DNA of 57,439 bases, taken from an uncultured Chitinophagaceae bacterium (lineage in GTDB: Bacteria; Bacteroidota; Ignavibacteria; UBA10030; UBA8401). This document shows, piece by piece, positions 4,119-38,305 of the stretch (position 1 is the first letter of the stretch; the number at the start of each line of letters is the position of its first letter). Position numbers and translations under genes: made by a program. Location of the stretch: contig CAZRWF010000010.1 in the NCBI GenBank assembly GCA_964603685.1, forward strand, positions 1-57,439, written 5' to 3'. The notes under the pieces were generated by a model. That model searched no databases, was not told where the DNA came from, and worked only from the letters and a program-made list of their open reading frames with translations.

Positions 4119-4135
4119 AACGATCTCCTTCTTTC

Positions 4136-18413: not shown

Positions 18414-19388
18414 TTACCTTCCCCGTTTCCCTTCTTTTTCGCCGAATACACCGTACGCCTCGATGATCTCCTTGACCAGCCGGTGGCGCACCACGTCGTT
18501 TTTGTCGAAATAGACAAAATCGATCCCTTCGATCTTCGTCAGCACCTCCTGGATTTGCACCAATCCTGAAACGACGTTGTTCGGAAGATCAATCTGCGTC
18601 ACGTCCCCGGTGATGATCGCTTTGGAATTATTGCCGAGACGGGTGAGAAACATCTTCATCTGCATCGCGGTCGCATTCTGCGCTTCGTCCAAAATGATAA
18701 ATGCGTTGTGCAGCGTGCGGCCGCGCATATACGCCAGCGGCACGATCTCGATGATCCGGCGTTCCATATATAACTTCAGCTTTTCGCTCGGCAGCATGTC
18801 GTCCAGCGCATCGTAAAGCGGACGGAGGTACGGATCGATCTTTTGTGCCATATCGCCCGGAAGGAATCCGAGCGATTCCCCCGCTTCCACGGCGGGCCGG
18901 GCGAGCACGATCTTGCTCACGTCGTTGTTTTTCAGCGCAGCCACCGCCATCGCCACCGCCAGATACGTTTTTCCCGTTCCGGCCGGTCCGATCGCAAACA
19001 GAATATCGTTCCGCTGCGCTTTGTCCAAATAATCCCGCTGCGTGGGTGTTTTCGCTTTGATGATCGAATTTTTCGTGAACAACACCGCTACATCGTTCCC
19101 TTTCAGTTTTGCCGCACCGAACGAAGGCGGAGTGATGTCCACGACGAGATCCAGCACGGTGTTGACATCATTTGCCGTCAGTGTTCCGTTTTTCCCGAGC
19201 AAAAATTGGAGTTCGTTGAACACCCGTTCCAGCTGCTCGAGCTCCTGTTCTTCTCCGCGGAGAGAGATGTGACTCCCCCGGGCGGTGATGGAAGCGTCGA
19301 AGCGTTGTTCGATGAGATGAAGGTGTGAATCATTATATCCCAGCAGCGACAACGGATCGACCTCTTTGATCGTTAATTTCTTTTCGAT
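18414..19388 (-). CDS. phoH: PhoH family ATPase/RNA helicase (PhoH-like)
   Basis: GPAGTGKT, RPAVEAGE, LGFLPGD, RGRTL, DEAQN, GDVTQIDL. No ATG start is available; probable ATC start at 19388 behind AAGGAG (fallback TTG at 19352). Confidence 0.9.
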   Translation of the reverse strand: MEKKLTIKEVDPLSLLGYNDSHLHLIEQRFDASITARGSHISLRGEEQELEQLERVFNELQFLLGKNGTLTANDVNTVLDLVVDITPPSFGAAKLKGNDVAVLFTKNSIIKAKTPTQRDYLDKAQRNDILFAIGPAGTGKTYLAVAMAVAALKNNDVSKIVLARPAVEAGESLGFLPGDMAQKIDPYLRPLYDALDDMLPSEKLKLYMERRIIEIVPLAYMRGRTLHNAFIILDEAQNATAMQMKMFLTRLGNNSKAIITGDVTQIDLPNNVVSGLVQIQEVLTKIEGIDFVYFDKNDVVRHRLVKEIIEAYGVFGEKEGKRGR

Positions 19389-19430: not shown

Positions 19431-19796
19431 TTAAAAACAATTTTTCAACACGCGGCAATGTGCTGTTCCGTTGACCGACAGCACGGTCACCACATCAAAT
19501 CGGCATTCCGTATCGGTGATATTCCGTTCCGCCACATATCCTTCCGCGGTGCGACGGAGCAATTCCTGCTTTTTCGGCGTGACCGACTCTTCCGGTTCGC
19601 CGAATCGATCGGAGGTTCGGTATTTTACTTCCACAAAAACGAGCGTTCCGCCGTCACGGGCGATGATATCGATCTCTCCCCGTTGAAAATAATAATTTTG
19701 TTCCACAATCTCATATCCGTTCTTCAACAGCCAATCGGCCGCAATCCGCTCACCCGTCCGACCGGCTTCCCTCCGGTTGTTCTTCTCCGCCGTCAC
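19431..19796 (-). CDS. yraN: YraN family (UPF0102) endonuclease-like protein
   Basis: GERIAADWL, GEIDIIA, FVEVKYR, CRFDVV; GTGA overlap with rnhB. Confidence 0.9.
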   Translation of the reverse strand: MTAEKNNRREAGRTGERIAADWLLKNGYEIVEQNYYFQRGEIDIIARDGGTLVFVEVKYRTSDRFGEPEESVTPKKQELLRRTAEGYVAERNITDTECRFDVVTVLSVNGTAHCRVLKNCF

Positions 19797-20395
19797 GGCG
19801 CCGGTTCCGCTCCGTCCACATGGAACGACCGTCGATGAATCGGGGAAAAACCGTGCGTCCGGATCGCATCAATGTGCGCTTTTGTTCCGTACCCTTTGTG
19901 CCGGGCAAATCCGTATTCCGGATACGCTTCATGCAGCTCCTTCATCAGCGCATCGCGCGTCACTTTCGCAACGATCGATGCGGCGGCGATGGAGTGAGAG
20001 AGCGCATCCCCTTTGACGATATTTTCCACCGGAAATCGTTCGTGCCGGAAAAAATTTCCGTCGACCAGCAATTGTTCCGGTGCGGACGAGAGCGCATCGA
20101 TTGCCTTGTTCATCGCCAGGAATGACGCCTGCAGGATGTTGATCCGGTCGATCACATCATGCGCGACAATTCCGACGCCGACACTCACTGCCCGGTCATG
20201 GATCCGATGGAACAGTGATTCCCTTTTCTTTTCCGTCAGCTTTTTGGAATCGTTCACACCGTCGATGATTTCACCCGGCGGAAATATTACGGCAGCCGCA
20301 ACGACCGGCCCCGCCAGCGGTCCGCGCCCCGCCTCATCCACGCCGGCGATCCGCAGAACTCCGGCATCCCAATATTTTTTTTCATACGTCAGCAT
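19793..20395 (-). CDS. rnhB: Ribonuclease HII
   Basis: GVDEAGRGPLAGPV, DSKKL, VDGN, KGDALS, AASIVAKVTRD, HKGYGT, HRRSF. Confidence 0.96.
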   Translation of the reverse strand: MLTYEKKYWDAGVLRIAGVDEAGRGPLAGPVVAAAVIFPPGEIIDGVNDSKKLTEKKRESLFHRIHDRAVSVGVGIVAHDVIDRINILQASFLAMNKAIDALSSAPEQLLVDGNFFRHERFPVENIVKGDALSHSIAAASIVAKVTRDALMKELHEAYPEYGFARHKGYGTKAHIDAIRTHGFSPIHRRSFHVDGAEPAP

Positions 20396-20396: not shown

Positions 20397-21221
20397 TCAT
20401 CCGAGGAAGATCGCCGCCAGTCCGACCAGCATATCCCATTTCACGATGGTCGACAGCCGGTTCAGATTTTTGACCGATCGATCGCGCCACAACGATACGA
20501 TCACGAACAGCAGCACCGCATTGACGCCGATATTAACTGCGATAAAATAGTGCAGACCGTAGATCCCTTGCTGAAACGGAATTACTGTCGATGCGATCAC
20601 AAGCAAAAGAAACACGGTCGCGACGGCGGCCGCCGGTGTAGAACCATACTTCACAGGAAAGGTCACGGCACCATTCCGGGAATCCCCTTCCACATCCTCC
20701 ATATCTTTGATGATCTCCCGTCCGACATTAATAAGAAAGGCAAACAGTGCGGGGATAAATGCTTTTTCCATATTTCCGACAACGGCACCGCCGTACATAA
20801 ATGCCAATCCGGTCAGCGCCCCGACGATGATATTTCCGAACAGGGGCGTCCCTTTGAACACTTTACTATAGAGAACGATTGCCGGAACGGCGATAAACGC
20901 TATGATAAACGCCGGACGCGTGGTGTAGGCGCTCATGATTAAACCGAATCCGGTAAGTGCACCGTAAAACATCAACGCATCGTATTTTTCCACCGCTCCG
21001 CTCGGAATCGGCCGGTCCGGTTTGTTGATCCGGTCGATCTCCACATCCAAAATGTCGTTGATCACCATCCCGCCGGCACCGATCATGGCGCCGCCAAGTC
21101 CGGCAAAAATCATCAAGAGGAGTTGATCTTGCGTCCCTCCGGCGAGAAGGCAAGAAACAACAATGGACAAGGCGGTGATGACGAAGTTGACGGGGCGGAG
21201 TAACGTGATGTATGGTTTCAT
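20397..21221 (-). CDS. UbiA family prenyltransferase, DGGGP synthase (geranylgeranylglycerol-phosphate geranylgeranyltransferase)-like
   Basis: LLRPVN, NDILDVEIDRINKPDRPIPSG, YSKVFKGTPLFGNIIVG, GREIIKDMEDVEGD: the Asp-rich motifs typical of the DGGGPS clade. Confidence 0.8.
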   Translation of the reverse strand: MKPYITLLRPVNFVITALSIVVSCLLAGGTQDQLLLMIFAGLGGAMIGAGGMVINDILDVEIDRINKPDRPIPSGAVEKYDALMFYGALTGFGLIMSAYTTRPAFIIAFIAVPAIVLYSKVFKGTPLFGNIIVGALTGLAFMYGGAVVGNMEKAFIPALFAFLINVGREIIKDMEDVEGDSRNGAVTFPVKYGSTPAAAVATVFLLLVIASTVIPFQQGIYGLHYFIAVNIGVNAVLLFVIVSLWRDRSVKNLNRLSTIVKWDMLVGLAAIFLG

Positions 21222-22993
21222 TAGAATTCGTTGATGATGCCGACATGAATCTTTCCGGTGCTGAAACTATCCCCTTCCCCGAGCGCGAAGGTCACGTTCA
21301 TGATCCCCAGTCCCGTTTCGATCCGCGCGCCGGTGCCGTAGCCGTACACACTCCGTTCCTGTCGACTGGTTCCGCGGAGCGGATCGGAGGGACGGGAAAA
21401 GTATCCGCCGTCCGCAAAAACGAAGAAGGAGGATGCGCGACCGGAGAGAAACCGGTATTCCGCCGTAATGTACGCAATTTGTGATGCAAAAAATTGGTTC
21501 TCGCGGTACCCGCGCACCGATGTGGTGCCGCCGAACGGGAACAAATCGCTCACTTCCAATCGCGATCCGGTGATCTGTTTTCCGTGAAAGGCAATCAACA
21601 CCACATTCCGGAGAAAGGGAGAAAAGTACATTTCCGCATCGACCGTATATCGCTGCACGCCGAATTCCCGCTCGACGGATGGGGTCAAAAATTGCGGCGG
21701 ACCGGTGATGGATTTGGTACCGCGACGCACCGCTGCGGCGTATCGAACACCCTCCGAAGGATTCCGGAGATCATTCCGCGTATCGAACAACAGTTCTGCA
21801 CCGAACGAATACAATTCGCTTTCAAATACGGTGAATCGAAGACGATCCGCTCCCGGAATGACCGACTCTGTCGTAAAATTTCCGGAGAGGGTCAATTCAT
21901 CGGTTGCCGGCCATTCGAGCCGGAGTTCGAACCGTGTTTTTACGTACGAAGAATCCTGTTTTCTTTGAAAAAATGTCCCGCCGGCGTTCAACGGATATCC
22001 GTACAGCCACGGTTCGCGGTACTGGAGTTCCAATTCCTGCGTAATGTCGGTCTCCCGCTGCCAACGGATGAGCGCTTTTCTGCCGCTGCCGAACAAATTG
22101 CGCATCGCCACAAAAATATTGCCGGTAAAATATCCCTTCGTTGAAGGCGAAACGGCGGGAACATATCCTGCGATGCCGTCGAACGAGTTGTTTGCTCCTT
22201 CCTTCACCCTCCATCGTATTCCTCCGCGTTGCGTTCCGCTGTCCGACGGTGCGACAATGAACAACTCCGGCGGGGAGACCGACGAGAAGAGCTGCATCCG
22301 TTCCAACCGCCGAGTCATTTGCGTCAATCGTTGTTCACGGAACGGCTCCCCTTGCTTCCACCGTAATTCCCGGATAATCACCTCCGAATCGGTCGTGCCA
22401 TTGCCGGTGATGCGGATCTCGTCGATCGTCACCGCGGCCCCTTCGGAAACGACAAGGAGGACTCGGATCCGTTCGGGCGCACCCGGTTCCGTTTCTACGC
22501 CGCTGCTGTTGATGGAAGCGAGCGGAAATCCATTCTCGGAATAGAGGTGCAGCATCGACCGGATGTCCCGTTCCAATGCGGCAGGATCCAGCGGAGAACC
22601 GACCTCCGTTTCAAAACCGGACAATAAACGATCGGACGGAATGGAGACGTTTCCGGCGACCGAAATTTCGGATACAAGAGACCGGACCCCTTCCGTTAAA
22701 AAAAAATGGACTGCGACGGCGGAATCGACGCGCTCTTCGAGCAGTGAATCGATGCGAAACGAATAAAAGCCCGCCGCGGCATAGTGTCGCTGCAACAAAG
22801 TGCGCGACTCGGCAATGCCGGCACTTTCGCTCCCCGGTGTTGCCGGAATCAACTCCCGCAGTTCGCGTTCGGAAAAATACACATTACCGGTGAAACGGAT
22901 GGAAGCAACGGTGATTTGGGCAAACGCCGGGTACAGAGCCGAAAGAAAAAGATGGATGACGAGTACGGAAAATATCGGAAGGAATAATTTCAT
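21221..22993 (-). CDS. Omp85 family (TamA-like) outer membrane protein: 3 POTRA domains plus barrel
   Basis: Signal peptide; three POTRA starts (IRFTGN, ISVAGN, IRITGN); loop-6 motif VRGY; terminal F. Alternative TTG start at 23029. Confidence 0.85.
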   Translation of the reverse strand: MKLFLPIFSVLVIHLFLSALYPAFAQITVASIRFTGNVYFSERELRELIPATPGSESAGIAESRTLLQRHYAAAGFYSFRIDSLLEERVDSAVAVHFFLTEGVRSLVSEISVAGNVSIPSDRLLSGFETEVGSPLDPAALERDIRSMLHLYSENGFPLASINSSGVETEPGAPERIRVLLVVSEGAAVTIDEIRITGNGTTDSEVIIRELRWKQGEPFREQRLTQMTRRLERMQLFSSVSPPELFIVAPSDSGTQRGGIRWRVKEGANNSFDGIAGYVPAVSPSTKGYFTGNIFVAMRNLFGSGRKALIRWQRETDITQELELQYREPWLYGYPLNAGGTFFQRKQDSSYVKTRFELRLEWPATDELTLSGNFTTESVIPGADRLRFTVFESELYSFGAELLFDTRNDLRNPSEGVRYAAAVRRGTKSITGPPQFLTPSVEREFGVQRYTVDAEMYFSPFLRNVVLIAFHGKQITGSRLEVSDLFPFGGTTSVRGYRENQFFASQIAYITAEYRFLSGRASSFFVFADGGYFSRPSDPLRGTSRQERSVYGYGTGARIETGLGIMNVTFALGEGDSFSTGKIHVGIINEF

Positions 22994-23025
22994 CGGTTGT
23001 TCCGCTGCCGGAGATCGACCGCGGA

Positions 23026-24306
23026 TCAATATTTCAGCCGCTGCAAGAGATCGTAGATCGGCGTCAGCAGCCGGTAGTCGCCGAATCCCGTTTCATCCAC
23101 AAAAATGATATTGCGGTTAAAATCGTAATAGGACCACACTTCGTACGGTTTGGAATCGATGTCGAAGGGATGACGTTCCACATTGTTCGGCGAGCCGAAC
23201 AGAATAAAGACCATTCCCATATCGGTCTTCCATCCCTGCTGATAATGCGAAAAATGCTGGTTGGCGTACTCCACCCTGCTGTAGTACTCCTCCATAAACT
23301 CGTTCCGCTTTGTGTTCGGATTCGGATCGCGTTTGCGCCAAAATTCCTCGAACAATCTCCGTTGTTCTTCTTCGGACGGGGCATTGGTGATGATGTCGTA
23401 TTCGTCCGCCTTGGAGATATATCGCAATTGTTTGATCGCCATTGAAAGATCCGAAATAGAGATCGGCATATTGCCCCAGCGAACGATGAAGATCCTCTGT
23501 TTCACCACCGGCATAACGTCCGCCGAAACGTTGCGCTGCCGCACCTCCACCGTCAGTGCGTAGGCGCCGACGGGATAATCCGCGCTGTCGATGGCCATGA
23601 CCACCTGCGTTTTCGCACCGGCCGACCGCTGATACCGTTTTCCGGCCAGCACCAATTTTCCTTTTCCGTCGCTGACGGTGTAATTCACCTCGATCGATTC
23701 GGCCGCGGCGGTCGCATACACTTCAAAAAAAACGGAGAAGGTGGAACTTTTTTCGCCGATGTTGCCGGAGATATTGGGAGAAATATTCGTTTTTTCCCCT
23801 TCGACATTCATCCGGTTGAGCAGCATGATGTCGCTGACGGAAAGTGTCTTCAAGGAGTAGTTGTCGACGATGATCTTCCGGCTGATGAAGGAGACCTTTT
23901 TGGATTCGTAATCCCTCAACTGCGTCCGCACCGTGTAGATTCCCGGCGTGATGGAGACCGAACGGTGGGTAAAACTCGACGCTTTGCGCGATTCGGTTTC
24001 GGAAAACTCCTTTAACCGGATCTCTTCCGTCCACATCTTTTCCGAGACCGAGACGTTGTCGTCGGTGATAAAGTTGACCGTCACTTCATATTTCGCCGTG
24101 TAGGTCCCGCCGTTCTTCACAAATTGAACGGCATGATACGGCACCTGCACGTACACATCCACGCGCGACGACGACGAATCTCCGGAGGAAAAACTGATCG
24201 CATCGACGAAAAATTCCGGGTGTTCGAATCCGGTTTTCGGTTTCCGCGTTTCGACCTGTGCGAGAAGGGAAAGGGAAATCAGGAATATGGAAAGAATAAT
24301 TTTCAT
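23026..24306 (-). CDS. GWxTD domain-containing secreted protein
   Basis: Signal peptide MKIILSIFLISLSLLAQ; FWRKRDPNPNT, RVEYAN, GWKTDMG, GSPNNVE, EVWSY. Confidence 0.88.
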   Translation of the reverse strand: MKIILSIFLISLSLLAQVETRKPKTGFEHPEFFVDAISFSSGDSSSSRVDVYVQVPYHAVQFVKNGGTYTAKYEVTVNFITDDNVSVSEKMWTEEIRLKEFSETESRKASSFTHRSVSITPGIYTVRTQLRDYESKKVSFISRKIIVDNYSLKTLSVSDIMLLNRMNVEGEKTNISPNISGNIGEKSSTFSVFFEVYATAAAESIEVNYTVSDGKGKLVLAGKRYQRSAGAKTQVVMAIDSADYPVGAYALTVEVRQRNVSADVMPVVKQRIFIVRWGNMPISISDLSMAIKQLRYISKADEYDIITNAPSEEEQRRLFEEFWRKRDPNPNTKRNEFMEEYYSRVEYANQHFSHYQQGWKTDMGMVFILFGSPNNVERHPFDIDSKPYEVWSYYDFNRNIIFVDETGFGDYRLLTPIYDLLQRLKY

Positions 24307-25610
24307 GATGCCGGCGTGTTGATCACTTCTCCGTACAAATCGTACTCGGTGGCGTCGGTGACGGTAATCGGGACGAAATCCCCGACGTTCATTCCCGGAA
24401 TCCGCGTGATGAACACTTCGTTGTCCACTTCGGGCGCATCCCATTCGGTCCGACCGACGGCATTTCCCTCTTCGATCCGTTCGATCACCGCGCGCGTGTG
24501 TTTGCCGATGCGTGATTCGTTTTTTTCGAGCGAGATGGCGCGCTGAATCTCCATTACGTACTCTTTGCGGCGTTCTTTTTCCCCCTCGGGAATCGGATCG
24601 CCGAGTCCGTAGGCGGTCGTGTCATCCTCTTGAGAGTACGTAAAAACTCCGAGTCTGTCAAATTTTACCTGTTGAATAAACCGGACCAGTTCTTCGATAT
24701 CCGCTTCGGTTTCATTCGGATATCCGACGATCAGCGTGGTGCGCAGGGCAATATCGGGCACCGATGTGCGGATGCGTTCGATCAATTGTTCGGTGGTCCG
24801 GCGCGTAATGCCTCGGCGCATCGACTTTAAAACATTGTCCGCCGCATGCTGAATCGGCATATCGATATACCGGCAGATCTTCGGATGATCCGCGAATGAT
24901 TGCAGGATGTCCATCGGGAACTTGGCGGGAAAGGCATACATCAACCGGATCCATTCCAATTCCTTGATCGAGGCAAGCGAGGTGAGCAGCGATGCCAGTT
25001 TCCGTTCACCGTACAGGTCCAATCCGTAATAGGTTGTATCCTGTCCGATCACAATCAGTTCTTTCACCCCTTTGTCCACCAGCCGCATGGTCTCTTCCAT
25101 CACCTGTTCCACCGGCTTGGTTTTGTGTTTCCCCCGCATCAGCGGGATGGCGCAGAACGAACAGGGATTGTCGCACCCTTCGGAGATTTTCAGGTAGGAA
25201 AAATAGTTCGGGGTCGACAGCGCCCGTTCGCCGAGGAGTTCGTATTTATATTGCGCTCCCAGTGTTTCGAGGATCTTCGGCAATTCGTTTGTGCCGAAAA
25301 AATTGTCGATCTCCGGAATCTCTTTGTGCAGATCGTTCTTGTACCGTTCGACCAAACAACCCATCACGTACACTTTGTCCAGCTGTTTCGACGTTTTGCG
25401 TTCCACGGCGGAAAGGATCGTATCCACCGATTGCCGTTTGGCGGCATCGATGAAACCGCAGGTATTGATGATCGCAATGTCCGCGTCGTCAATCGAATCG
25501 GTGAGGGTGAATTCGTTGTGCAGCAGCTGGCTGTACAATGCCTCCGAATCGACCGTGTTTTTGGCGCAGCCGAGGGTGATGATGTTGATCTTTTGTTGTT
25601 TGGTATTCAT
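24303..25610 (-). CDS. rimO: Ribosomal protein S12 methylthiotransferase RimO
   Basis: TLGCAKNTVDSE, NTCGFI, radical-SAM motif EGCDNPCSFCAIP, and C-terminal TRAM (DAPEVDN). Confidence 0.94.
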   Translation of the reverse strand: MNTKQQKINIITLGCAKNTVDSEALYSQLLHNEFTLTDSIDDADIAIINTCGFIDAAKRQSVDTILSAVERKTSKQLDKVYVMGCLVERYKNDLHKEIPEIDNFFGTNELPKILETLGAQYKYELLGERALSTPNYFSYLKISEGCDNPCSFCAIPLMRGKHKTKPVEQVMEETMRLVDKGVKELIVIGQDTTYYGLDLYGERKLASLLTSLASIKELEWIRLMYAFPAKFPMDILQSFADHPKICRYIDMPIQHAADNVLKSMRRGITRRTTEQLIERIRTSVPDIALRTTLIVGYPNETEADIEELVRFIQQVKFDRLGVFTYSQEDDTTAYGLGDPIPEGEKERRKEYVMEIQRAISLEKNESRIGKHTRAVIERIEEGNAVGRTEWDAPEVDNEVFITRIPGMNVGDFVPITVTDATEYDLYGEVINTPAS

Positions 25611-25655
25611 GCAGGTTCGTTGTCGGAAAAACAAACGCCGGCGTCCGCCGGTGCG

Positions 25656-26618
25656 TCAGGACAGGACGACAAAATCAATATAGAGATACAACAGCGGCGA
25701 AATGAAAATGAGACTGTCGAACCGGTCGAACATTCCGCCGTGACCGGGAATCAACCCGGAAGAATCTTTCACTCCGGCGTCCCGTTTCATCAACGACTCG
25801 ATCAGATCGCCGATCTGGCCGAACACGCCGATGATGGTGCCGATCACCGCCGCTTGATGCAGCGTGAGATACGGCAAAAAGTACTGCTGCACGAGCACCA
25901 TCGTGCCGACCGCGCCGGCAAACCCCCACACAGCGCCTTCCCAACTTTTGTTCGGACTGACACGGGGAAACAATTTATGTTTTCCCATCGTCAATCCGCC
26001 GAAATAGGCCATCGTGTCGCACATCCACACGGAGACGAAAATGCCGATCACCGTCCACCCTCCCCAGGCATAGGTCGTCGCTTGCAGCACCTCGTCGGTA
26101 AAGGCGACGGTCGGCGGAAAATGCTGCATCGCCAAATAGTACGGGAATTCCGCACCGAACAATTCACGGATGCCGGTCAACGATGCGAGAAACATTCCCA
26201 CATACAAAACGCCGAAAACGGTGAATCCGGCATTCAGAAAGATCGAACCGTCGTTCCGGAACAATTCCACAAGAAGCACAAGCGTCAGGAACACAAAAAG
26301 AACGGTGGCAAAAAGCTGCAACTTCATCAACAACGCAATGCCGCCGCTGTCGAGAAAAAACGGAACGACGGCATTTTGTATCTGTTCGTGGAAAAACGAG
26401 AGATGGAGCGCCGTCATGCCGGCAACGGCGACACCGGTCTGCGGTTTCGCCCCTTTGGCGCGCGCCAGCGCAAAAAATTCGAGCAGCGCCGCCACGCCTA
26501 TTGCCAGCACGAACAACAGAAACACGATTCCTCCGGCATACGCCGCATACAGGATGAACGGTATCGCGACAATCGCGACGCCGACGCGGGGCGCAAGATT
26601 GGAAAATTTAGATGCCAT
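25656..26618 (-). CDS. cdsA: Phosphatidate cytidylyltransferase
   Basis: DTMAYFGG, SPNKSWEG, GDLIESLMKRDAGVKDSSGLIPGHGGMFDRFDS. Confidence 0.93.
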   Translation of the reverse strand: MASKFSNLAPRVGVAIVAIPFILYAAYAGGIVFLLFVLAIGVAALLEFFALARAKGAKPQTGVAVAGMTALHLSFFHEQIQNAVVPFFLDSGGIALLMKLQLFATVLFVFLTLVLLVELFRNDGSIFLNAGFTVFGVLYVGMFLASLTGIRELFGAEFPYYLAMQHFPPTVAFTDEVLQATTYAWGGWTVIGIFVSVWMCDTMAYFGGLTMGKHKLFPRVSPNKSWEGAVWGFAGAVGTMVLVQQYFLPYLTLHQAAVIGTIIGVFGQIGDLIESLMKRDAGVKDSSGLIPGHGGMFDRFDSLIFISPLLYLYIDFVVLS

Positions 26619-26874
26619 GACCGTTCGTAAAATCCATGAGGTCCAAAGTGGAAAGCAGTCTCCGCGCCTGTTCCTCTTGGGCGCGGGGGACGAATATGTG
26701 CGGCGGTTCCGTCGTTTCATCCGACGCATCGGTCGCCGTGGAACGGATCGTGATGCCGTTTAACTGAAGATTTTTCCCGATTAAATCCAACGCAAAAATG
26801 TGGGGAACCGTCAACAACGGAACAAATCCCTCCTCCGGCACTGCGCTCTCCGCCGCGGAATGTCCGTTCGGCAT
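26608..26874 (-). CDS. Small DUF2007-like (putative signal-transducing) protein
   Basis: 88 aa, TGATG-coupled to the upstream CPBP gene; pattern LQLNGI...IFVPRAQEEQARRLL. Confidence 0.6.
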   Translation of the reverse strand: MPNGHSAAESAVPEEGFVPLLTVPHIFALDLIGKNLQLNGITIRSTATDASDETTEPPHIFVPRAQEEQARRLLSTLDLMDFTNGHGI

Positions 26875-27794
26875 CAGTTCGCTCCTTCGTTCTGTTCGGT
26901 CGCTTTTCGGTATTGCACCAATACCAAATAAAAGATGATTCCGAAGACCGCCCCCGTTCCGACAACGGACGCCAGGCTCGGTTCCGCTTCAGCCCCCATA
27001 AACATGGTGGGAGTGGTCGAATCAACCGCACCGTACATATACACCCCCACCGTCGCCATACCGTTGTTGATCAGATGGGCGACGATCGGCAGCACGAGCG
27101 ACCCGGAACGATGCCGCAGATAACTGAAATATATCCCGAGCGCGATCAGCGGCACCAGCCAGAACGGATTCAGGTGGTACACGCCGAAGATCGTTCCGGC
27201 CAGCAGGAACCCTTTCCGGCTTCCATATTCCAAGGAAAAGTTCTTTTGAATCAATCCGCGGAACATCAATTCTTCGCAGAGGGAAGGGGTCACCGCGGCC
27301 ACGAGAAGCACAAACAGCAATTCGGGAACGGAATCGGCGCTGATCAGGACGCGGAACGCTTCTTCGATGGAGCGTTTGATCATGTCGATGTACGGCAGCC
27401 ATTGTTCCGGCACGGGAATTTTGCTCTGCACAAACAGATACATCTCCGCCGTCTGCATTAACGCGAACATGCCGACCACCGCAAGAAAAAATTCTTTCCC
27501 GCCCGGCAGACGCATCGGAAAAATTTCCGCCAGCGCCCCATGCTGCCGTCGGGCCAGCAGCAGCGTCGGTATCAACAAAAAGAGGATCTGCGAGATCATC
27601 GTCGCCGTCCGCGCCATGGCGGCATTTTCTTTCGTGATCTCCGCGCCGATCAGCAACACCGTGATGCCGCCGCCGATGAATTGGTACAACACGAACAAGA
27701 GAGCGAGCGCCACGAAGGCGAAGGAGCCCGGTGTGTAGCGTGTCCGCAGGGATTGAAAGATCCCCGATTCGTTTTCGATGGTGTCTGCGTTCAT
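26874..27794 (-). CDS. CPBP (CAAX/Abi) family intramembrane metalloprotease
   Basis: EELMFRG, FGVYHL, HLINN; multiple TM helices. Confidence 0.9.
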   Translation of the reverse strand: MNADTIENESGIFQSLRTRYTPGSFAFVALALLFVLYQFIGGGITVLLIGAEITKENAAMARTATMISQILFLLIPTLLLARRQHGALAEIFPMRLPGGKEFFLAVVGMFALMQTAEMYLFVQSKIPVPEQWLPYIDMIKRSIEEAFRVLISADSVPELLFVLLVAAVTPSLCEELMFRGLIQKNFSLEYGSRKGFLLAGTIFGVYHLNPFWLVPLIALGIYFSYLRHRSGSLVLPIVAHLINNGMATVGVYMYGAVDSTTPTMFMGAEAEPSLASVVGTGAVFGIIFYLVLVQYRKATEQNEGAN

Positions 27795-28576
27795 GGTACT
27801 TTGGACCGTAATTCTCCGTTGATGCCGGAATATTCCCGCAATTCGGCATCGATGGAACCGATGACGACCTTGGTGTTGACTTTCACCGGAATTTTCCGCT
27901 CGTCATCCGACAACCAGATCAATATCCGTCCCTCGCTTTTGAACAATCCCCCTTCTTTCACCATCGGTTCGACGATGATGCATTGAAAGGTTCCCGCCTC
28001 GACTTCCACTTTTTGTTTGCCGAGATATTTAATGTCCAGCGGATTCGTCTTCCCTTTGAAAAAATTCTGCAAATGCACCCGCTGACCGATCTTCATTTTC
28101 GAATAGTCGATCGTGCGGGCATAATAAAAGGCGGACATGATGTCGTGCACGTGCGTCGGAATATCGAACTCTCCCTCGTCGGTCAGCGCTTTTCCTCTCC
28201 GCTGGTCGAACACCGCCGTGTAATCCCGCTTGAATTTTCCCTCCCGAATGTGCTGTTCGAACCGCCAGGGAAAGATTCCTGCTGAATCGAGATACGTCTC
28301 GTACCGGTCCCGCACTTCAAAAAACAGATCGAACGTCGGCGTGGAGCGGACGGTGAACTGAACTTTATATGTGGTGTTGCCGAGCACCGTATCGAATTGC
28401 GGTATGCTCATTTCGGCATAGCCGGCGGTGATGATGCCGAAGTTGACGTCGAACAACAGCCGTTCGCCGACGGCGAACGCATTCTGTTTCTCCGCTTTCT
28501 GCGCGAACATTCCCGCGGCGGTCAGCGTCAACAAAAACAACAGCCGCCGAAAGCGGCGGAACGAATTATTGATCAT
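27791..28576 (-). CDS. DUF3108 domain secreted protein
   Basis: Signal peptide; FAVGERLLFDVNFGIITAG, DIMSAFYYAR, IWLSDDERKIPVK. Confidence 0.75.
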   Translation of the reverse strand: MINNSFRRFRRLLFLLTLTAAGMFAQKAEKQNAFAVGERLLFDVNFGIITAGYAEMSIPQFDTVLGNTTYKVQFTVRSTPTFDLFFEVRDRYETYLDSAGIFPWRFEQHIREGKFKRDYTAVFDQRRGKALTDEGEFDIPTHVHDIMSAFYYARTIDYSKMKIGQRVHLQNFFKGKTNPLDIKYLGKQKVEVEAGTFQCIIVEPMVKEGGLFKSEGRILIWLSDDERKIPVKVNTKVVIGSIDAELREYSGINGELRSKVP

Positions 28577-29585
28577 GAAGTAGTTCTTGAATTCCGGCAA
28601 CGACCTGTTCCACGGTAATTTGATCCATACACACCGACGAACGGCACGCTCCCCCCGTACAGAGCGGACATACCCGGTTGTCCGCCGTAAAAATTTTTTT
28701 CTTCTCCGTAAACGGCCCCCAGCGGACCGGACTGCATTGTACGATCGGCGGATAAAAGGCCGCCACCGGCGTTCCGCACATGGCCGCAATGTGGAGCGGT
28801 CCAGTGGAATTGGAAACAAACACGGCGGCTCGGCGGAACAATGCACCTAATTCCTTCAACGAAAACTTCCCGCACACATTCACCGGCGGCCGCTCCATCT
28901 TCTCTGCGACGGAACGCACCAGATCCGATTCGTTGTTGCCGCCGGTCAGAACCACGGAAAGTCCCAGCTGCCGTGACAGCGCATCGCCCAATTGGGCGAA
29001 TTTTTCCGGAGACCAATCGCGGGCGGAACCGCCGCTTCCGGCATGCAATACGGCAAACCGCTCCACCTTTTCCGCGGCGAGCATCCGGGCGACCGTCTGT
29101 TCCGCCTCCGGCGGAATCCGAAATTCAAACTCCGGACGGGAGATACGATCAATCCCGATCGCCGTCAGCAAATTCAGATTGTATTCGGCTTCATGGCGCT
29201 GTGCATCCTTCCGGTGTTCGAATACCCGGTGCGTAAAAAGGAACGAATACCATCGGTATCCCGTTCCCACACGCGTCAAAATCCCCGACAAAAACAGCAG
29301 CAGCGCGATGCGGAAACGCGGGTACGGCACGATGGCAACATCGAACCGTTGCCGGCGCAACCGGGAGACATATTCCGCAAACGTGTGCGTTTCATCCCAG
29401 AGAATCACTTCATCCACGTTTGAATGACCGTCCACCAGCTCTTTGGTGTACGGCCGGACCATCACGCTGATCTTCGCGGACGGATACTTCCGTTTCAGCA
29501 TGGGAAGCATCGGCAGCGACAATACCACATCGCCGATACGGTCGGTACGGACAAGCAGGATCTTTTTGACGGTGTAATCTTCCAT
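28566..29585 (-). CDS. Glycosyltransferase family 9 (LPS heptosyltransferase-like)
   Basis: VRTDRIGDVVLSLP, HAGSGGSARDW, VSNSTGPLHIAA. Confidence 0.9.
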   Translation of the reverse strand: MEDYTVKKILLVRTDRIGDVVLSLPMLPMLKRKYPSAKISVMVRPYTKELVDGHSNVDEVILWDETHTFAEYVSRLRRQRFDVAIVPYPRFRIALLLFLSGILTRVGTGYRWYSFLFTHRVFEHRKDAQRHEAEYNLNLLTAIGIDRISRPEFEFRIPPEAEQTVARMLAAEKVERFAVLHAGSGGSARDWSPEKFAQLGDALSRQLGLSVVLTGGNNESDLVRSVAEKMERPPVNVCGKFSLKELGALFRRAAVFVSNSTGPLHIAAMCGTPVAAFYPPIVQCSPVRWGPFTEKKKIFTADNRVCPLCTGGACRSSVCMDQITVEQVVAGIQELLHDQ

Positions 29586-29590
29586 CACCG

Positions 29591-30208
29591 TCAGAACGGT
29601 TCATCCAGAATATCGAACGATTCCCATCCCCGGAAATCGTAATGCCACCATTCGCTGCGGATCGCGATGAATCCGTGCCGTTCCATGATCTCTTTCAACA
29701 TCGCCCTGTTCCGGATCGCCGCCGGCGTATGGTCCATATTGTCATGCGACGCCTTTTCCGTAAAATCATCGTAGCCGGTCGGCATTTCCAGTTCGGCACC
29801 GGTCGAGTCGATGATCGTCAGATCCACCGCCGCTCCGCGATTGTGTTTGGAACCTTTTTTCGGATCGGCGACATATCGCGGATCGGCGACCACTTCCCAC
29901 AATTTTTTTTGGATCGACAAGGGACGGTATCCGTCGAAAATTTTCAGCCCCAATCCGCGCGAACGGAGTTCGCGCTGCACGGCGGCGAGGCTTTCGGCGG
30001 CGACGCGGCGCAGTTTCGCCGCTGCCACGGGATACAGAACGGTTCCGGTGAAATTATTGTCGGTGGCATACCGGATATCCAGCACCAGCGAGGAATCGAT
30101 CTCACGGAGATCGACGATCTCCTGCGGCGCGCCGTGTTGCGGAACCGCCGCTCCGCAGCCGGCGAAAACGAACAAAAAAAGCACAATGGCCGGGAGAAGT
30201 TTTTTCAT
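29591..30208 (-). CDS. ddpX: D-alanyl-D-alanine dipeptidase (M15D, VanX/DdpX) with lipoprotein signal
   Basis: DIRYATDNNFTG, DGYRP, SKHNRGAAVD, EWWHYD; lipobox FAGC. Confidence 0.88.
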   Translation of the reverse strand: MKKLLPAIVLFLFVFAGCGAAVPQHGAPQEIVDLREIDSSLVLDIRYATDNNFTGTVLYPVAAAKLRRVAAESLAAVQRELRSRGLGLKIFDGYRPLSIQKKLWEVVADPRYVADPKKGSKHNRGAAVDLTIIDSTGAELEMPTGYDDFTEKASHDNMDHTPAAIRNRAMLKEIMERHGFIAIRSEWWHYDFRGWESFDILDEPF

Positions 30209-30211
30209 AGT

Positions 30212-31378
30212 TCAGGAAACGAACACCTTTGCCACATCGATGATCATGGACGGTTGATTCCACAATGCGGAACGAAAGATCGCTCCGAGTGTCCGTTTTT
30301 CTTCGGGAAGTTTTAACGCGCTGTCGCAGATGTTATTGTATGTCCGGTCGTCGAATCCGCCGATGGCGTTCCGGATATTATAGAATACGTCATGACGCCA
30401 GCCGAGCCGTTTGTGCCATCGTTTTTCGTACTCGCGCAAGTGCGACACATCGCCCCGGAGAACCGCTTCGGCCGCCGTTTGTCCACCGATCATTCCGCCG
30501 ATCATTCCGGAAATGATCCCGCCGCCGGAAACAGGGTTCACCTGGTGCGCCGCATCCCCCACGAGGATCACATTTCCGTTGACGATCTCCGGATTTGTTT
30601 TGGCGCACGGCACACCGCCGGCAATATGCGTCAACATCGCGGCTTTCGGAAATTTTCGATCGACAAATTCCTGCAGATATTTGATCGCCGCTTTTTTCTT
30701 CGCCTGGTCGACCGAGATGCCGAGTCCGACATTCGCCGTATCCTTTCCTTTCGGGAACACCCAGAGGTATCCGCCGGGCGAAACCTGATCGCCGAAATAA
30801 AAATCGAGCACATCTTCTTCCACGTCGATGCCGGAAAGGGTCATCTGTGCGCAGCTCTCCATATCCTTGATGTGGCACGTCGTATCCATTCCCGCCCATT
30901 TCCCGACGCGCGATTCCACACCGTCCGCGGCAATAATCACCGTCGCGCGGATGTCGACCTTCTTCTCTTTAATCAAGGTCTTGACGCCGGTGATCTTCCC
31001 TTCTTCGCGCAGCAGGTCATACACATACGCTTTCGTGATCACTTCGGCTCCCTCGTGTGCCGCCAGTTTCGCCAGTTCATAGTCGAAGATCCTCCGCTCC
31101 AGCACATATCCTCCCCCATCCAGCTTCGGCAATACGCTGCTGCCGTTCGGAGAGATTAATCGAAACTTCGAAACGGAGGAGGCGATCCATTTCGGATCCG
31201 GAGTGATAAATTGTGCGACACCTTCATGGCTCACCGCTTCGCCGCACCGGACCGGATAACCGACATCCCGATCCTTCTCCAGCATCAACACACGCGCGCC
31301 GCCGGCCGCCGCATACCGCGCAGCAGTGGAACCGGCGGGGCCGGCACCGACAACGATAATATCATAATCAACATTCAT
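30212..31378 (-). CDS. Geranylgeranyl reductase family flavoprotein (DGGGPL reductase-like)
   Basis: GAGPAGS, PVRCGEA, ERRIFD, ADGVES, PGGYLWVFPKG (PxxYxWxFP), GDAAHQVNPVSGGGI. Confidence 0.88.
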   Translation of the reverse strand: MNVDYDIIVVGAGPAGSTAARYAAAGGARVLMLEKDRDVGYPVRCGEAVSHEGVAQFITPDPKWIASSVSKFRLISPNGSSVLPKLDGGGYVLERRIFDYELAKLAAHEGAEVITKAYVYDLLREEGKITGVKTLIKEKKVDIRATVIIAADGVESRVGKWAGMDTTCHIKDMESCAQMTLSGIDVEEDVLDFYFGDQVSPGGYLWVFPKGKDTANVGLGISVDQAKKKAAIKYLQEFVDRKFPKAAMLTHIAGGVPCAKTNPEIVNGNVILVGDAAHQVNPVSGGGIISGMIGGMIGGQTAAEAVLRGDVSHLREYEKRWHKRLGWRHDVFYNIRNAIGGFDDRTYNNICDSALKLPEEKRTLGAIFRSALWNQPSMIIDVAKVFVS

Positions 31379-31395
31379 GGAAAAATTTTTTCGTG

Positions 31396-31650
31396 TTAAG
31401 AAAAAGGAACCGCATCATTCACCATCTGCGGCATCTGTTTCGGCAGGTGCTCCACTCCGTCCCGGTGGAATTCGATGACTTCCCACGGACAGGCCCAAAC
31501 GCATTTCCGGCAGTTCGTACAACGATCCTCGATCAATGCGATTTTCGACTCCATCAGTTCAATCGCGTCTTCGGGACACACACCGACGCAGCATCCGCAA
31601 TAATCACATTTGCCGGGAACGATATGAATCATCAAATGGGGCTGCGGCAT
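31396..31650 (-). CDS. 2x[4Fe-4S] dicluster ferredoxin
   Basis: CDYCGCCVGVCP and CTNCRKCVWACP; TAATG-coupled to the FKBP gene (alternative start 31632). Confidence 0.9.
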   Translation of the reverse strand: MPQPHLMIHIVPGKCDYCGCCVGVCPEDAIELMESKIALIEDRCTNCRKCVWACPWEVIEFHRDGVEHLPKQMPQMVNDAVPFS

Positions 31651-32054
31651 TATTCAATCCCCAATAATTCTACTTCAAAGATCAACGTGGCATTCGGAGG
31701 AATCACGCCGCCGGCCCCTTGCCGGCCGTATCCCAATTCGGGCGGAATCGTCAATCGGCTTTTTCCGCCGACCTTCATTGTTCCGATGCCGTCATCCCAT
31801 CCTTGTATGACCTGGCCGACACCGAATTGATATCGGAACGGCTGACCGCGATCGACCGAACTGTCAAATTTTGTGCTGTCCGTCAGCCAACCGGTATAAT
31901 GGACGGTCACCAATTGGCCTTCTTTCGGTGTCACGCCATGGCCTTCCTTTAAAACTTCAACATTTACGCCAGATTTCGTCATAAATTTTTTGTTTCCGCA
32001 AGAAGAGACGAGAAGTGAAAACACTATCACGAAAATTATTGCTAGTTTTTTCAT
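31650..32054 (-). CDS. FKBP-type peptidyl-prolyl cis-trans isomerase (lipoprotein)
   Basis: Lipobox VSSC; VHYTGWL, FDSS, VIQGWDDG, IPPELGYG, IPPNATLIFEVELL. Confidence 0.93.
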   Translation of the reverse strand: MKKLAIIFVIVFSLLVSSCGNKKFMTKSGVNVEVLKEGHGVTPKEGQLVTVHYTGWLTDSTKFDSSVDRGQPFRYQFGVGQVIQGWDDGIGTMKVGGKSRLTIPPELGYGRQGAGGVIPPNATLIFEVELLGIE

Positions 32055-32074
32055 GAAATGTGAAATTTTTCCTT

Positions 32075-32103
32075 AAAATAAGGAAAAGAAGACCGACTTC
32101 CAA
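32075..32103 (-). promoter_or_regulatory. Putative sigma70 promoter for the FKBP-to-phoH operon
   Basis: Minus strand TTGGAA-N17-TATTTT, 20 nt upstream of the ATG at 32054. Confidence 0.5.
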
Positions 32104-32137
32104 AAATATTCCCGAAAACGGCATGTTTATTTAAAAT

Positions 32138-32169
32138 AAAAACTCCATTCATTTCTGAATGGAGTTTTT
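32138..32169. terminator. Rho-independent (bidirectional-type) terminator downstream of the HU gene
   Basis: Perfect 14-bp inverted repeat AAAAACTCCATTCA-tttc-TGAATGGAGTTTTT, 25 nt past the HU stop. Confidence 0.85.
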
Positions 32170-32194
32170 GAAAAATTACTGAATGATTCAGTAA

Positions 32195-32482
32195 TTACTT
32201 TTTACCAAGAATCGCATCTTTTGCAGCTTTTGCCACTTTGAATTTCACAACTTTTTTCGCAGGAATCTGAATCGTTTCGCCGGTAGCGGGATTGCGGCCA
32301 ATGCGAGCTTTACGATCCACCAAAACCAATTTACCGATTCCAGGGATGGTGAATTGATTTGCTGCTTCTTTATAGGCCAAAGTTGATAATTCTTCGAAGA
32401 ATTCCGTTACCACTTTCTTTTTCAATCCGAATTTATCGGCAAAATGGCTCGCGATTTGCGATTTCGACATTGCTTTTCCCAT
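32195..32482 (-). CDS. hup: HU family DNA-binding protein
   Basis: MSKSQIA..., IPGIGKL, RKARIGRNPATGETIQIPAKKVVKF; AGGAG upstream. Confidence 0.93.
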   Translation of the reverse strand: MGKAMSKSQIASHFADKFGLKKKVVTEFFEELSTLAYKEAANQFTIPGIGKLVLVDRKARIGRNPATGETIQIPAKKVVKFKVAKAAKDAILGKK

Positions 32483-32546
32483 ATGAACTCCTTTGATAAG
32501 TGAATTGGAAAATTTATTTAGTGTTTCTCTCTAACCAACTGGTGTA

Positions 32547-32575
32547 AATATATATTATTCATAAGGCAGTGTCAA
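32547..32575 (-). promoter_or_regulatory. Near-consensus sigma70 promoter of the HU gene
   Basis: Minus strand TTGACA-N17-TATATT with an AT-rich upstream tract. Confidence 0.75.
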
Positions 32576-32662
32576 TACAATGTTGAAAAAATCTTTATTT
32601 TATTGGTGTTTTTAAACCTTTCGCAAAAACTACGCCAATTCATTGAGGAAATTTTACCAACA

Positions 32663-32697
32663 AAAAACGGCTAATTTTATTCAAATTAGCCGTTTTT
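32663..32697. terminator. Rho-independent terminator between the membrane-protein gene and the HU promoter
   Basis: Perfect 15-bp inverted repeat AAAAACGGCTAATTT-tattc-AAATTAGCCGTTTTT. Confidence 0.75.
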
Positions 32698-32792
32698 AAT
32701 TGCCCGATTGAGTAAAAAATCACCGGTTTTCTACAGTAGAGGAAGAAAAAAATAATTCACTCTTTTCACCAATTATACCGGGATTTTGAGAA

Positions 32793-33149
32793 TTACCATA
32801 AAAAAGCAATAGCCGTAATAGTTATTGCTGAAACAAGGATGAGTATCAACGTCAACGGTTTTTGCGGTGCATTGTTCATCATCCTCTTCCGGTAGATCGT
32901 CGCCAGGACGGAAAGTTCTATCGCCAGTAACATTTTTATTCCCACTTTCATGTGGTTCACTTCGGACAACAGCAAAAAGAACAAAGCGAATCCGGTCAGC
33001 AATTGCGCATGGGAGGCGGACATGAGTACGGTGGCGAATTTTTTTCTCGTAGAGTCTGCCGCACTTTTATTGAGCAACAGTTGCAGTGAAAAAAGGATCA
33101 CGGCGGCCATTCCGGCCAGATGGAGAACGTACAATAGATGATGGATCAT
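32793..33149 (-). CDS. Hypothetical four-TM membrane protein
   Basis: 118 aa, four hydrophobic segments; HLAGM, SHAQLLTGF, HMKVGIK. Confidence 0.75.
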   Translation of the reverse strand: MIHHLLYVLHLAGMAAVILFSLQLLLNKSAADSTRKKFATVLMSASHAQLLTGFALFFLLLSEVNHMKVGIKMLLAIELSVLATIYRKRMMNNAPQKPLTLILILVSAITITAIAFLW

Positions 33150-33223
33150 GGTCACCCTTTCGAAATGATATATTGATTACAAAGGAATTTAACGATAATT
33201 TGTTGAAAACCTATTACAACCTC

Positions 33224-36402: not shown

Positions 36403-37034
36403 TGAATCCGCTTCCCCGTTCGTTTTATACGCGGCGGACATTGACCGTCGCCAAAGAGCTGCTCGGCAAATATATCGTTCGTACGCTCGGCCGGAAACGC
36501 CTGATCGGCCGCATTGTGGAAACGGAAGCCTATCTCCGGAACGATCCCGCCTCACATTCTTACCGTGGGAAAACCCGTCGGAATGCACCGATGTTCGAAC
36601 GCGGGGGATGTTTATACGTTTATTTTACGTACGGATTACACTATTGTGCCAATGTGGTCACGGCGGAAGAAGGGATCGGCGAAGCGGTTTTGATCCGCGC
36701 CGTTGAACCGATCGAAGGGATTGACGAGATGCGAAAGCGGCGCGGTCGCCCCGGAAAGGTGAAGTCCACACTCCGTGGTTTGTCGGCCGACGGCACGGCC
36801 GTTCCCGCCGAACTTCGGTTGTTGACGAACGGTCCGGCCAAATTCGCTCAGGCGTTCGGACTTACCGTGACTCAGTCGGGGATCGATCTGACCGGTACCG
36901 ATATTTTTCTGACGGAAGGGATCGCGGTACCGAAATCCCGAATCGGTGTGTCGGGAAGAATCGGCATCAGCACGGCACAGGAAAAACAGTGGAGATTTTT
37001 TCTCCGGGAGAATCCGTGGGTCTCTAAAACGTGA
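36402..37034 (+). CDS. mpg: 3-methyladenine DNA glycosylase (MPG/AAG family)
   Basis: RIVETEAY, LYVYFTYGLHYCANVV, VLIRAVEP, NGPAK, RIGIS. Confidence 0.92.
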
Positions 37035-38297: not shown

Positions 38298-38305
38298 GGC
38301 AAATA

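Follow-up and report, generated by a model that had tools for sequence, protein, structure and literature searches.

A DGGGPS-family prenyltransferase and a ferredoxin-coupled geranylgeranyl reductase in a bacterial housekeeping gene run: three likely parts of an archaeal-like ether-lipid pathway

Here, we report that a 57,439-nucleotide stretch of DNA from an uncultured bacterium of the Ignavibacteria (contig CAZRWF010000010.1; the whole stretch, about 57 kb, is called the window below) probably encodes three parts of an archaeal-like pathway for isoprenoid glycerol-ether lipids. These are a UbiA-type prenyltransferase of the digeranylgeranylglyceryl phosphate synthase (DGGGPS; EC 2.5.1.42) family, a geranylgeranyl reductase (GGR), and a small ferredoxin (Fdx), all encoded in one run of minus-strand genes (Table 1). 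Briefly, a group II geranylgeranylglyceryl phosphate synthase (GGGPS), encoded elsewhere in the genome, would attach a geranylgeranyl chain to glycerol phosphate; the UbiA would add the second chain, converting geranylgeranylglyceryl phosphate (GGGP) and geranylgeranyl diphosphate (GGPP) to digeranylgeranylglyceryl phosphate (DGGGP); the GGR would saturate the chains, drawing electrons from the ferredoxin whose gene ends 17 nt upstream; and the product may then be processed by head-group enzymes and the ordinary bacterial CdsA. We are highly confident of the gene assignments taken by themselves, and we consider the full mechanism probable, with a good deal more reserve. The enzyme activities, the stereochemistry of the glycerol, and whether and in what amount the lipid is present in vivo are matters of inference from these genes; the ether lipid may be made in small amounts or only under certain conditions, or the product may be something else. 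The broader question is whether living bacteria make archaeal-type diethers beside their fatty-acid lipids, i.e., a natural mixed membrane, a point that matters for theories on the lipid divide; the window itself does not settle it.

The UbiA protein matches Pfam PF01040 (8.5e-41) over residues 18-251, and three archaeal DGGGPS models rank first for it in NCBIfam (216, 214, and 169 bits), ahead of ChlG (83) and EboC (80). Its best match in the PDB is the DGGGPS of M. jannaschii (MjDGGGPS; 6m31, 3.4e-39), and chlorophyll synthase is found at 1.4e-12. Residues N55, D59, D63, Y118, K123, D173, D176, and D180 of the window UbiA align to N62, D66, D70, Y125, K130, D180, D183, and D187 of MjDGGGPS. 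Mutations of N62, D66, D70, D180, D183, and D187, and of the motif-2 pair Y125/K130, cripple the archaeal enzyme (PMC9385802), and all of these mutationally important residues are kept in the window protein; as in 6m31, both Asp-rich motifs, the Y..K motif, and the F148 of lipid tunnel 2 are present. These motifs are indicative of a working enzyme but not of its acceptor specificity, on which they are uninformative because they are common to much of the superfamily.

The placement of the UbiA was examined in a neighbor-joining (NJ) tree of 38 sequences, comprising archaeal DGGGPS, homologues from FCB bacteria (Fibrobacteres–Chlorobi–Bacteroidetes), ChlG (PDB 9sau), and UbiA, MenA, and CyoE of E. 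coli; the three E. coli sequences were verified, each scoring above its own NCBIfam equivalog cut-off. Support was obtained by counting splits over 200 bootstraps. The four outgroups split from the 34 DGGGPS-like sequences in 166/200 bootstraps (83%). The window UbiA joins its clade in 200/200 and falls with archaeal DGGGPS and with the UbiAs of Cloacimonadota (L194) and Poribacteria. Its identity is 32.5% to the M. jannaschii enzyme, 33% to L194, 35% to the Poribacteria sequences, 27% to a Spirosomataceae homologue (L062), and 18-21% to the outgroups. A divergent cluster of Bacteroidetes sequences was also considered as its place and rejected: L062, which matches NF009513 (362 bits), branches apart. 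Proteins 77-80% identical to the window UbiA have already been named "geranylgeranylglycerol-phosphate geranylgeranyltransferase" by NCBI and JGI. Taken together, the comparisons support assigning this UbiA to the DGGGPS family and not to the quinone, haem, or chlorophyll prenyltransferases.

The GGR scores 239.8 bits with TIGR02032 (GG-red-SF), above the cut-off of 158.8, and its best model is the DGGGPL reductase of Thermoplasmatales. It aligns with the T. acidophilum enzyme (TaGGR, 3oz2) over 352 residues (3.9e-68) and, in this alignment, keeps VVGAGPAGS (the FAD-binding GxGxxG), RCGE with the catalytic cysteine (C45), SPGGYLWVFP (PxxYxWxFP), and LVGDAA. MenJ, ChlP, and FixC were rejected as identities for it, the respective models giving 65, 89, and 37 bits, far under the DGGGPL reductase models. 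An FAD-dependent GGR of euryarchaeal (Thermoplasma) type, closest to the archaeal DGGGPL reductase of EC 1.3.7.11 / 1.3.1.101, is the assignment that these comparisons support. In a scan of a genome collection, homologues 66-89% identical to the GGR were found in at least 80 species-level genomes. Eighty GGR genomes were kept, and 71 loci among them have enough upstream sequence to look for the ferredoxin; 67 of these 71 have a same-strand ferredoxin (68-94% identity) no more than 500 nt upstream of the GGR. The window ferredoxin is of the 2x[4Fe-4S] type. It is presumably the electron donor of the GGR and its conserved partner, as the GGR of M. acetivorans requires a ferredoxin encoded beside it, and a 4Fe-4S neighbor is also found at the GGRs of A. 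fulgidus and T. acidophilum (PMC9385802, PMC10821996). The earlier note on this DNA, drawn from the letters and translated open reading frames (ORFs), had read the three genes as a DGGGPS-like UbiA, a geranylgeranyl reductase, and a dicluster ferredoxin. The first reading is borne out by the NCBIfam ranking, the 6m31 match, and the NJ tree (the comparison against ChlG, UbiA, MenA, and CyoE/COX10 was one that the note itself had proposed); the second by the GGR_cat and TIGR02032 matches and the closeness to the Thermoplasma reductase; and the third by the Fer4 match and two cysteine motifs.

The same gene families are brought together in relatives in more than one way. In the closest relatives, the arrangement is that of the window, with Fdx-GGR at the head of the run and UbiA near its tail, and the gene order of the run is kept. 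In some Ignavibacteriaceae (L244, L245, and L256), Omp85-Fdx-GGR-UbiA-RNHII are contiguous, and Fdx-GGR-UbiA are contiguous also in two short contigs (L255 and L259). In L022 and L033, the GGR is divergent from UbiA and adjoins it. In Poribacteria, one strand of L099 carries UbiA (3456-4310), Fdx (4499-4690), GGR (4723-5865), and a GGPS-family GGGPS (5932-6663), and L086 has the same four genes; the ferredoxin adjoins the GGR in both. Thus, where the earlier note had looked to synteny in related genomes, we find the run order kept and three further arrangements that link UbiA directly with Fdx-GGR. Because the same families are juxtaposed repeatedly and independently, there is good evidence that UbiA, Fdx, and GGR belong to one pathway, and from gene content and order we take the module of DGGGPS, ferredoxin, and GGR to be real and functionally linked. 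In KSB1 and Calditrichota, no lipid genes adjoin UbiA, which is surrounded there by genes for Dtd, Maf, RodZ, a Mur ligase, and an R3H protein.

The pathway would start with GGGPS, and the earlier note was right that neither GGGPS nor glycerol-1-phosphate dehydrogenase (G1PDH) is encoded in the window: no ORF scanned there matches PF01884, none is a G1PDH by Pfam, and tblastn of the window with MtGGGPS, B. subtilis PcrB (BsPcrB), and a clade GGGPS as queries gave only chance matches (E≥0.9). Nor was a GGGPS found beside UbiA in 80 related UbiA loci by phmmer with the B. subtilis PcrB query. The BsPcrB and MtGGGPS sequences were verified against the PDB over their full length (501 and 543 bits). 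As a seed, a two-motif DNA pattern, EAGSGA-N66-GGGI, was scanned for, which returned at least 120 loci, all of those listed encoding true GGGPS homologues. One of them, L171, is the GGGPS of the metagenome-assembled genome (MAG) GS28, which belongs to the clade of the window because its GGR (L254) is 78% identical to that of the window; the GS28 GGGPS was then the query for the scan of relatives. GGGPS is present, unlinked to UbiA, in 8/8 assemblies in which the closest UbiA loci occur (JBMOHT01, JBAYJG01, JACPGG01, CAYHZL01, CAIOTF01, JAJYOI01, CAISDA01, and DATGXR01), and GGGPS and a clade GGR occur together in 31 assemblies. The clade GGGPS matches Pfam PcrB (5.8e-48) and passes the NCBIfam GGGP equivalog cut-off (236 versus 161.6). 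On the closed chromosome of a relative, OY970334.1, a distance of about 2.4 Mb separates GGR from GGGPS. A separate observation concerns labels: GGR, GGGPS, and operon of the clade type, at 72-79% identity, also occur in MAGs named "Synechococcus sp." (CALRIY02; L239/L287), "Acidobacteriota" (JBLMZA01; L262/L300), and "Chitinophaga pinensis" (CALROS02; L286), which suggests mislabeled or contaminated bins because such taxonomy does not fit clade-type genes.

Several points weigh against our interpretation, and we list them together. The UbiA does not reach the equivalog cut-off of any of the three DGGGPS models (216.1 versus 296 for NF009521 and 214.2 versus 269 for NF009523), nor does the GGR reach the narrower archaeal equivalogs (255.8 versus 780 and 173.6 versus 580). 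The simple NJ tree leaves the order among bacterial and archaeal DGGGPS unsettled. GGGPS is known from the assemblies of relatives and not from the window organism's own DNA, and G1PDH is reported to be missing in most FCB phyla (PMC6431249). Judging from the packing of its genes, the run may plausibly be one transcript. No archaeol-type lipid is on record from a native FCB bacterium; PMC7852524 states that a natural mixed membrane had yet to be demonstrated, a 2024 Black Sea culture and enrichment study makes no mention of archaeol (PMC11129491), and neither of these two papers reports an isoprenoid diether for Ignavibacteria. With regard to the cut-offs, please note that the Cloacimonadota UbiA that adjoins a GGGPS (L194) gives the same NCBIfam pattern at lower scores (192 and 182 bits) and is likewise below them; because this UbiA fails too, the cut-offs appear to exclude bacterial members generally, and missing the archaeal values is therefore no evidence against a DGGGPS function. 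As for the GGGPS, its presence in all eight closest assemblies makes it very unlikely that the genome of the window organism is without one.

Some of these points would fit a different reading, i.e., that UbiA and GGR act on other substrates (a quinone, a pigment, a polyprenol, or another glycerolipid) and that the archaeal resemblance reflects ancestry and not function; the GGR and its ferredoxin, for example, might saturate menaquinone or polyprenyl chains. We regard this as rather unlikely. It would account for scores under the equivalog cut-offs and for the lack of a native FCB lipid product on record (PMC7852524); UbiA-family enzymes cluster by acceptor yet often change function (PMC6431249), GGRs are promiscuous in vitro (PMC9385802), and Villanueva et al. 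suggest a possibly divergent activity for a separate Bacteroidetes cluster. However, the window UbiA lies outside that cluster, as the branching of L062 indicates, and groups with L194, which lies beside GGGPS as in the experimentally verified pair. Every close relative also has a GGGPS, in Poribacteria this gene clusters physically with UbiA, Fdx, and GGR, and the MenJ, ChlP, and FixC models are far below the DGGGPL reductase models. Still less credible, to the point of being highly improbable, is the view that the genes are relics or that they serve to break down archaeal lipids acquired from the surroundings (a possibility that PMC6431249 brings up) and do not build the organism's own membrane. 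The scarcity of G1PDH among FCB phyla (PMC6431249) and, again, the lack of a native product on record could be quoted for it, but such an origin sits poorly with the strong conservation of GGR (66-89%) and ferredoxin (68-94%) across at least 80 species-level genomes, with the intact catalytic residues, and with the embedding of the genes in core housekeeping and envelope operons. In general enzymology, prenyl transfer driven by the release of diphosphate is not readily reversible, which also speaks against this view.

How far the rest of the run takes part in the proposed ether-lipid pathway is a different matter. The earlier note had read the whole run as a possible ether-lipid unit in which CdsA would supply the CDP-activation. 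The identity of the CdsA gene stands; the case for its dedicated role is weak. The only PDB matches of this CdsA are to the Thermotoga CdsA (4q2e/4q2g, 1e-23); no CarS chain, such as that of the solved A. pernix structure (ApCarS in PMC9385802), was found in the PDB search at E≤1, no CarS candidate is present among the window ORFs scanned, and a CarS-like identity was rejected for want of similarity. Judging from its matches, it is an ordinary bacterial housekeeping CDP-diglyceride synthase that could also activate DGGGP, as the E. coli CdsA is reported to replace CarS in activating DGGGP (PMC7852524, citing Caforio 2015). The E. coli region dxr-ispU-cdsA-rseP-bamA-skp-lpxD-fabZ-lpxA-lpxB-rnhB can be compared with the window segment CPBP-(88 aa)-CdsA-RimO-GWxTD-Omp85-UbiA-RNase HII. 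Both have cdsA, then an Omp85-family gene, then rnhB, in the same order and orientation, and in both an intramembrane protease adjoins cdsA. The window differs in having RimO and GWxTD between cdsA and the Omp85 gene, a CPBP protease and not RseP, and a single DGGGPS-family UbiA where E. coli has lpx and fabZ genes. Unlike the E. coli BamA, its Omp85 protein has three POTRA matches and is under the BamA cut-off (TIGR03303, 133 versus 297). The earlier description of this protein as TamA-like holds as a resemblance (three POTRA matches, 602 aa) but not as membership, the TamA model giving 24.6 versus a cut-off of 625 (NF047950). Because cdsA ... Omp85 ... rnhB is an ordinary bacterial order, the position of CdsA is uninformative on ether lipids, and it adds nothing because any CdsA in the genome could activate DGGGP. 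From gene order, the co-location of UbiA and GGR with CdsA seems to reflect genome history, perhaps with co-regulation for envelope growth, and not a dedicated 16-gene pathway. We offer this as a caution, as co-direction alone can mislead on function: a widespread gene order explains the CdsA linkage.

The Omp85-UbiA adjacency itself is kept in Ignavibacteria-like genomes. Separately, an Omp85 gene lies directly upstream of a DGGGPS-family UbiA in L046, L048, and L049 (Zixibacteria and an "Ignavibacteria" MAG), with an Omp85 identity of 22-24%; as it is seen outside the clade of the window, the adjacency is older than the clade or recurrent.

A link with heptose genes was found at two places. 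In 35/38 clade loci, the GGGPS gene overlaps by 4 nt with a GmhA-like SIS-domain gene downstream of it, an example being L303 (4944-6328, with the GGGPS at 4944-5687) on the relative's chromosome OY970334.1, and the pair is found also in Calditrichia, Zixibacteria, Marinimicrobia, and Ignavibacteria (further loci: L318, L326, L332, L334, L336, L129, L131, L119, L139, L152, L162, and L175). The GmhA-like protein scores 198 bits with TIGR00441, below the cut-off of 209. A heptosyltransferase-like GT9 gene lies within 2.6 kb downstream of the GGR in 59/80 related loci; that of the window scores 117 and 111 bits with the NCBIfam heptosyltransferase II and III models, both under the cut-offs. The GGGPS-GmhA pair and the GGR-GT9 proximity thus link the ether-lipid genes to heptose genes twice, although these links may only reflect co-regulation of envelope genes.

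These observations bear on whether the whole run could be a dedicated envelope pathway, in which a diether lipid would be CDP-activated by CdsA, glycosylated by GT9, and handled by DUF3108, CPBP, and Omp85, to yield an outer-membrane isoprenoid-ether glycolipid that may carry heptose. We find this unlikely. The GT9 gene downstream of GGR in most related loci, the overlap of the Omp85 stop with the UbiA start together with the recurrence of this adjacency in Zixibacteria, the GmhA-like gene after the unlinked GGGPS, and the independence of the two ties to heptose genes speak for it. Yet the run also holds the unrelated RimO, RNase HII, YraN, PhoH, FKBP, and M15 dipeptidase, its cdsA ... Omp85 ... 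rnhB order is generic among bacteria, and GT9 and GmhA are ordinary lipopolysaccharide-core genes, both under equivalog cut-offs. UbiA occurs without these neighbors in Poribacteria, Cloacimonadota, KSB1, and Calditrichota, where in the latter two it sits among unrelated housekeeping genes; the notion of one dedicated unit in the earlier note is therefore weak. The narrower idea that the diether lipid would be the anchor of a heptose-containing outer-membrane glycolipid, and not a bulk membrane phospholipid, is suggested by the GGGPS-GmhA overlap, the GT9 after Fdx-GGR, and the Omp85/DGGGPS overlap, and we hold it to be very unlikely; if true, a heptosylated diether would add to the envelope glycolipids of bacteria a new class with an archaeal-type core.

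The ether-lipid genes reported here are a well-supported new example of a published FCB trait and not a discovery. GGGPS and DGGGPS orthologues were found in all 12 FCB phyla surveyed, Ignavibacteria included, and G1PDH in only two of them (Coleman et al. 2019, PMC6431249); Ignavibacteriae are among the phyla that carry both GGGPS and DGGGPS (PMC7852524, PMC6431249). The GGGPS and DGGGPS pair of Cloacimonetes yields unsaturated archaeol-PG (PG, phosphatidylglycerol) in E. coli (Villanueva et al. 2021, PMC7852524). According to the same paper and its supplement, GGRs of euryarchaeal type occur across the FCB group, CarS and G1PDH are absent, and GGGPS and DGGGPS genes are co-localized only in Cloacimonetes. 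The window and its relatives agree with this FCB pathway (PMC7852524, PMC6431249) in having a group II GGGPS, a DGGGPS-family UbiA, and a euryarchaeal-type GGR, with CarS absent and a bacterial CdsA present. Because FCB homologues, those of Ignavibacteria included, are published and relatives of the UbiA already carry the DGGGPS name, the window is an added case of a known pathway, and the novelty implied by the earlier note was overstated.

Compared with known systems, differences are seen in the layout of the genes. In Cloacimonadota, GGGPS and DGGGPS are adjacent (L194), whereas in the clade of the window they are unlinked, about 2.4 Mb apart in OY970334.1, and here DGGGPS and Fdx-GGR share one housekeeping run. 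The Poribacteria cluster (L099 and L086) encodes proteins homologous to those of the window or its clade (UbiA 35%, GGR about 41%, and Fdx 38-41% identity); unlike in this compact, dedicated cluster, the corresponding genes of the window's clade are divided between a housekeeping run and a second locus. The GGR adjoins the gene of a small 4Fe-4S ferredoxin, an arrangement shared with M. acetivorans, A. fulgidus, and T. acidophilum (PMC10821996), but this gene is upstream of the GGR in the window and downstream in M. acetivorans. The window host also differs from archaeal systems in being a bacterium with the fatty-acid lipid gene CdsA and, in the window, no CarS. The available portions of PMC7852524 and PMC6431249 do not discuss a ferredoxin partner for bacteria. 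As far as could be told from the portions of the literature at hand, three things have not been described explicitly in bacteria: the GGR's near-universal association with a ferredoxin, the four-gene cluster of Poribacteria together with the contiguous Fdx-GGR-UbiA, and the GGGPS-GmhA pairing. Our comparison thus defines a conserved module (ferredoxin, GGR, and DGGGPS) and an unlinked GGGPS in a large clade of uncultured bacteria that spans at least 80 species-level genomes. The bacterial GGR has its own ferredoxin, which any attempt to rebuild the saturated lipid in another host would probably have to include. For expression, the most promising candidates are the compact Poribacteria clusters and, in some Ignavibacteriaceae, the contiguous Fdx-GGR-UbiA.

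Reading of the ORFs together with Pfam and NCBIfam searches of the window gives a run of 16 co-directional minus-strand ORFs, from 32054 to 18414 (Table 1). All genes named in the earlier note were found at the coordinates given for them, with GT9, the CPBP protease, and Omp85 lying between the ether-lipid genes, and its count of 16 holds if the 88-aa ORF between CPBP and CdsA is counted in; this ORF is kept at 34-51% identity across 17 related loci. At the junctions of the run, neighboring genes overlap by 1-11 nt or are separated by 1-45 nt, and the Omp85 stop and the UbiA start overlap by 1 nt. The one exception is the UPF0102-phoH gap of 78 nt, both with canonical start codons, so that the gaps of 45 nt or less that the note had ascribed to the run apply to most junctions and were slightly overstated. 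Upstream, a strong terminator-like hairpin (32169-32138) ends the gene for HU and sets the 5′ boundary of the run. The promoter given in the note, TTGGAA-N17-TATTTT, is indeed present (32103-32075), but it matches the sigma-70 consensus at only 8/12 positions and is absent from the promoter-scan listing. A run split by internal terminators was rejected, as terminator-like sites number 29 versus 23.6 ± 4.4 in shuffled sequence. A low-GC stretch covers 32055-33085 (GC 0.28-0.41 versus about 0.54 for the whole window); within or near it are the HU gene (32195-32482) and a 120-aa hydrophobic ORF (32793-33155) without a clear family.

Table 1 Genes and boundary elements of the 16-ORF run, listed in the direction of reading (window coordinates)
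Feature	Position	Strand	Basis
Intrinsic-terminator-like hairpin, 14-bp stem and T run	32138-32169	-	Terminator scan and direct reading
Promoter-like TTGGAA-N17-TATTTT	32075-32103	-	Direct reading; weak, 8/12 consensus matches
FKBP	31650-32054	-	Pfam, NCBIfam
Dicluster ferredoxin	31396-31650	-	Pfam Fer4 and Fer4_7; two CxxCxxCxxxCP motifs
GGR	30212-31378	-	Pfam GGR_cat 5.6e-28
M15 D-Ala-D-Ala dipeptidase	29591-30208	-	Pfam, NCBIfam
GT9 glycosyltransferase (heptosyltransferase-like)	28566-29588	-	Pfam Glyco_transf_9 1.5e-28
DUF3108 protein	about 27791-28576	-	Pfam, NCBIfam
CPBP protease	26874-27794	-	Pfam, NCBIfam
88-aa ORF	26608-26874	-	No Pfam family
CdsA	25656-26618	-	Pfam CTP_transf_1 1.2e-57
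RimO	24303-25634	-	Pfam, NCBIfam
GWxTD protein	23026-24306	-	Pfam, NCBIfam
Omp85-family outer-membrane protein, 602 aa	21221-23029	-	Pfam Omp85 and three POTRA stretches
DGGGPS-family UbiA	20397-21221	-	Pfam PF01040 8.5e-41
RNase HII	19793-20395	-	Pfam, NCBIfam
UPF0102/YraN	19431-19796	-	Pfam, NCBIfam
PhoH	18414-19352	-	Pfam, NCBIfam

Elsewhere in the window, long ORFs without a Pfam match lie at 33086-34291 (plus strand, 401 aa), 37024-38441 (minus strand, 226/270 aa), and 46540-48744 (minus strand, 734 aa). The 734-aa ORF sits among outer-membrane and type IX secretion-type genes, its neighbors being a weak PorV-like match (45611-46543), a TonB-dependent-receptor-like gene (48612-51644), and a Por_Secre_tail protein (51673-53172). 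Finally, the plus strand at 53610-56447 encodes a 945-aa fusion of a patatin-like phospholipase, POTRA, and an Omp85 barrel, which resembles the secreted lipases of PlpD type (type Vd).

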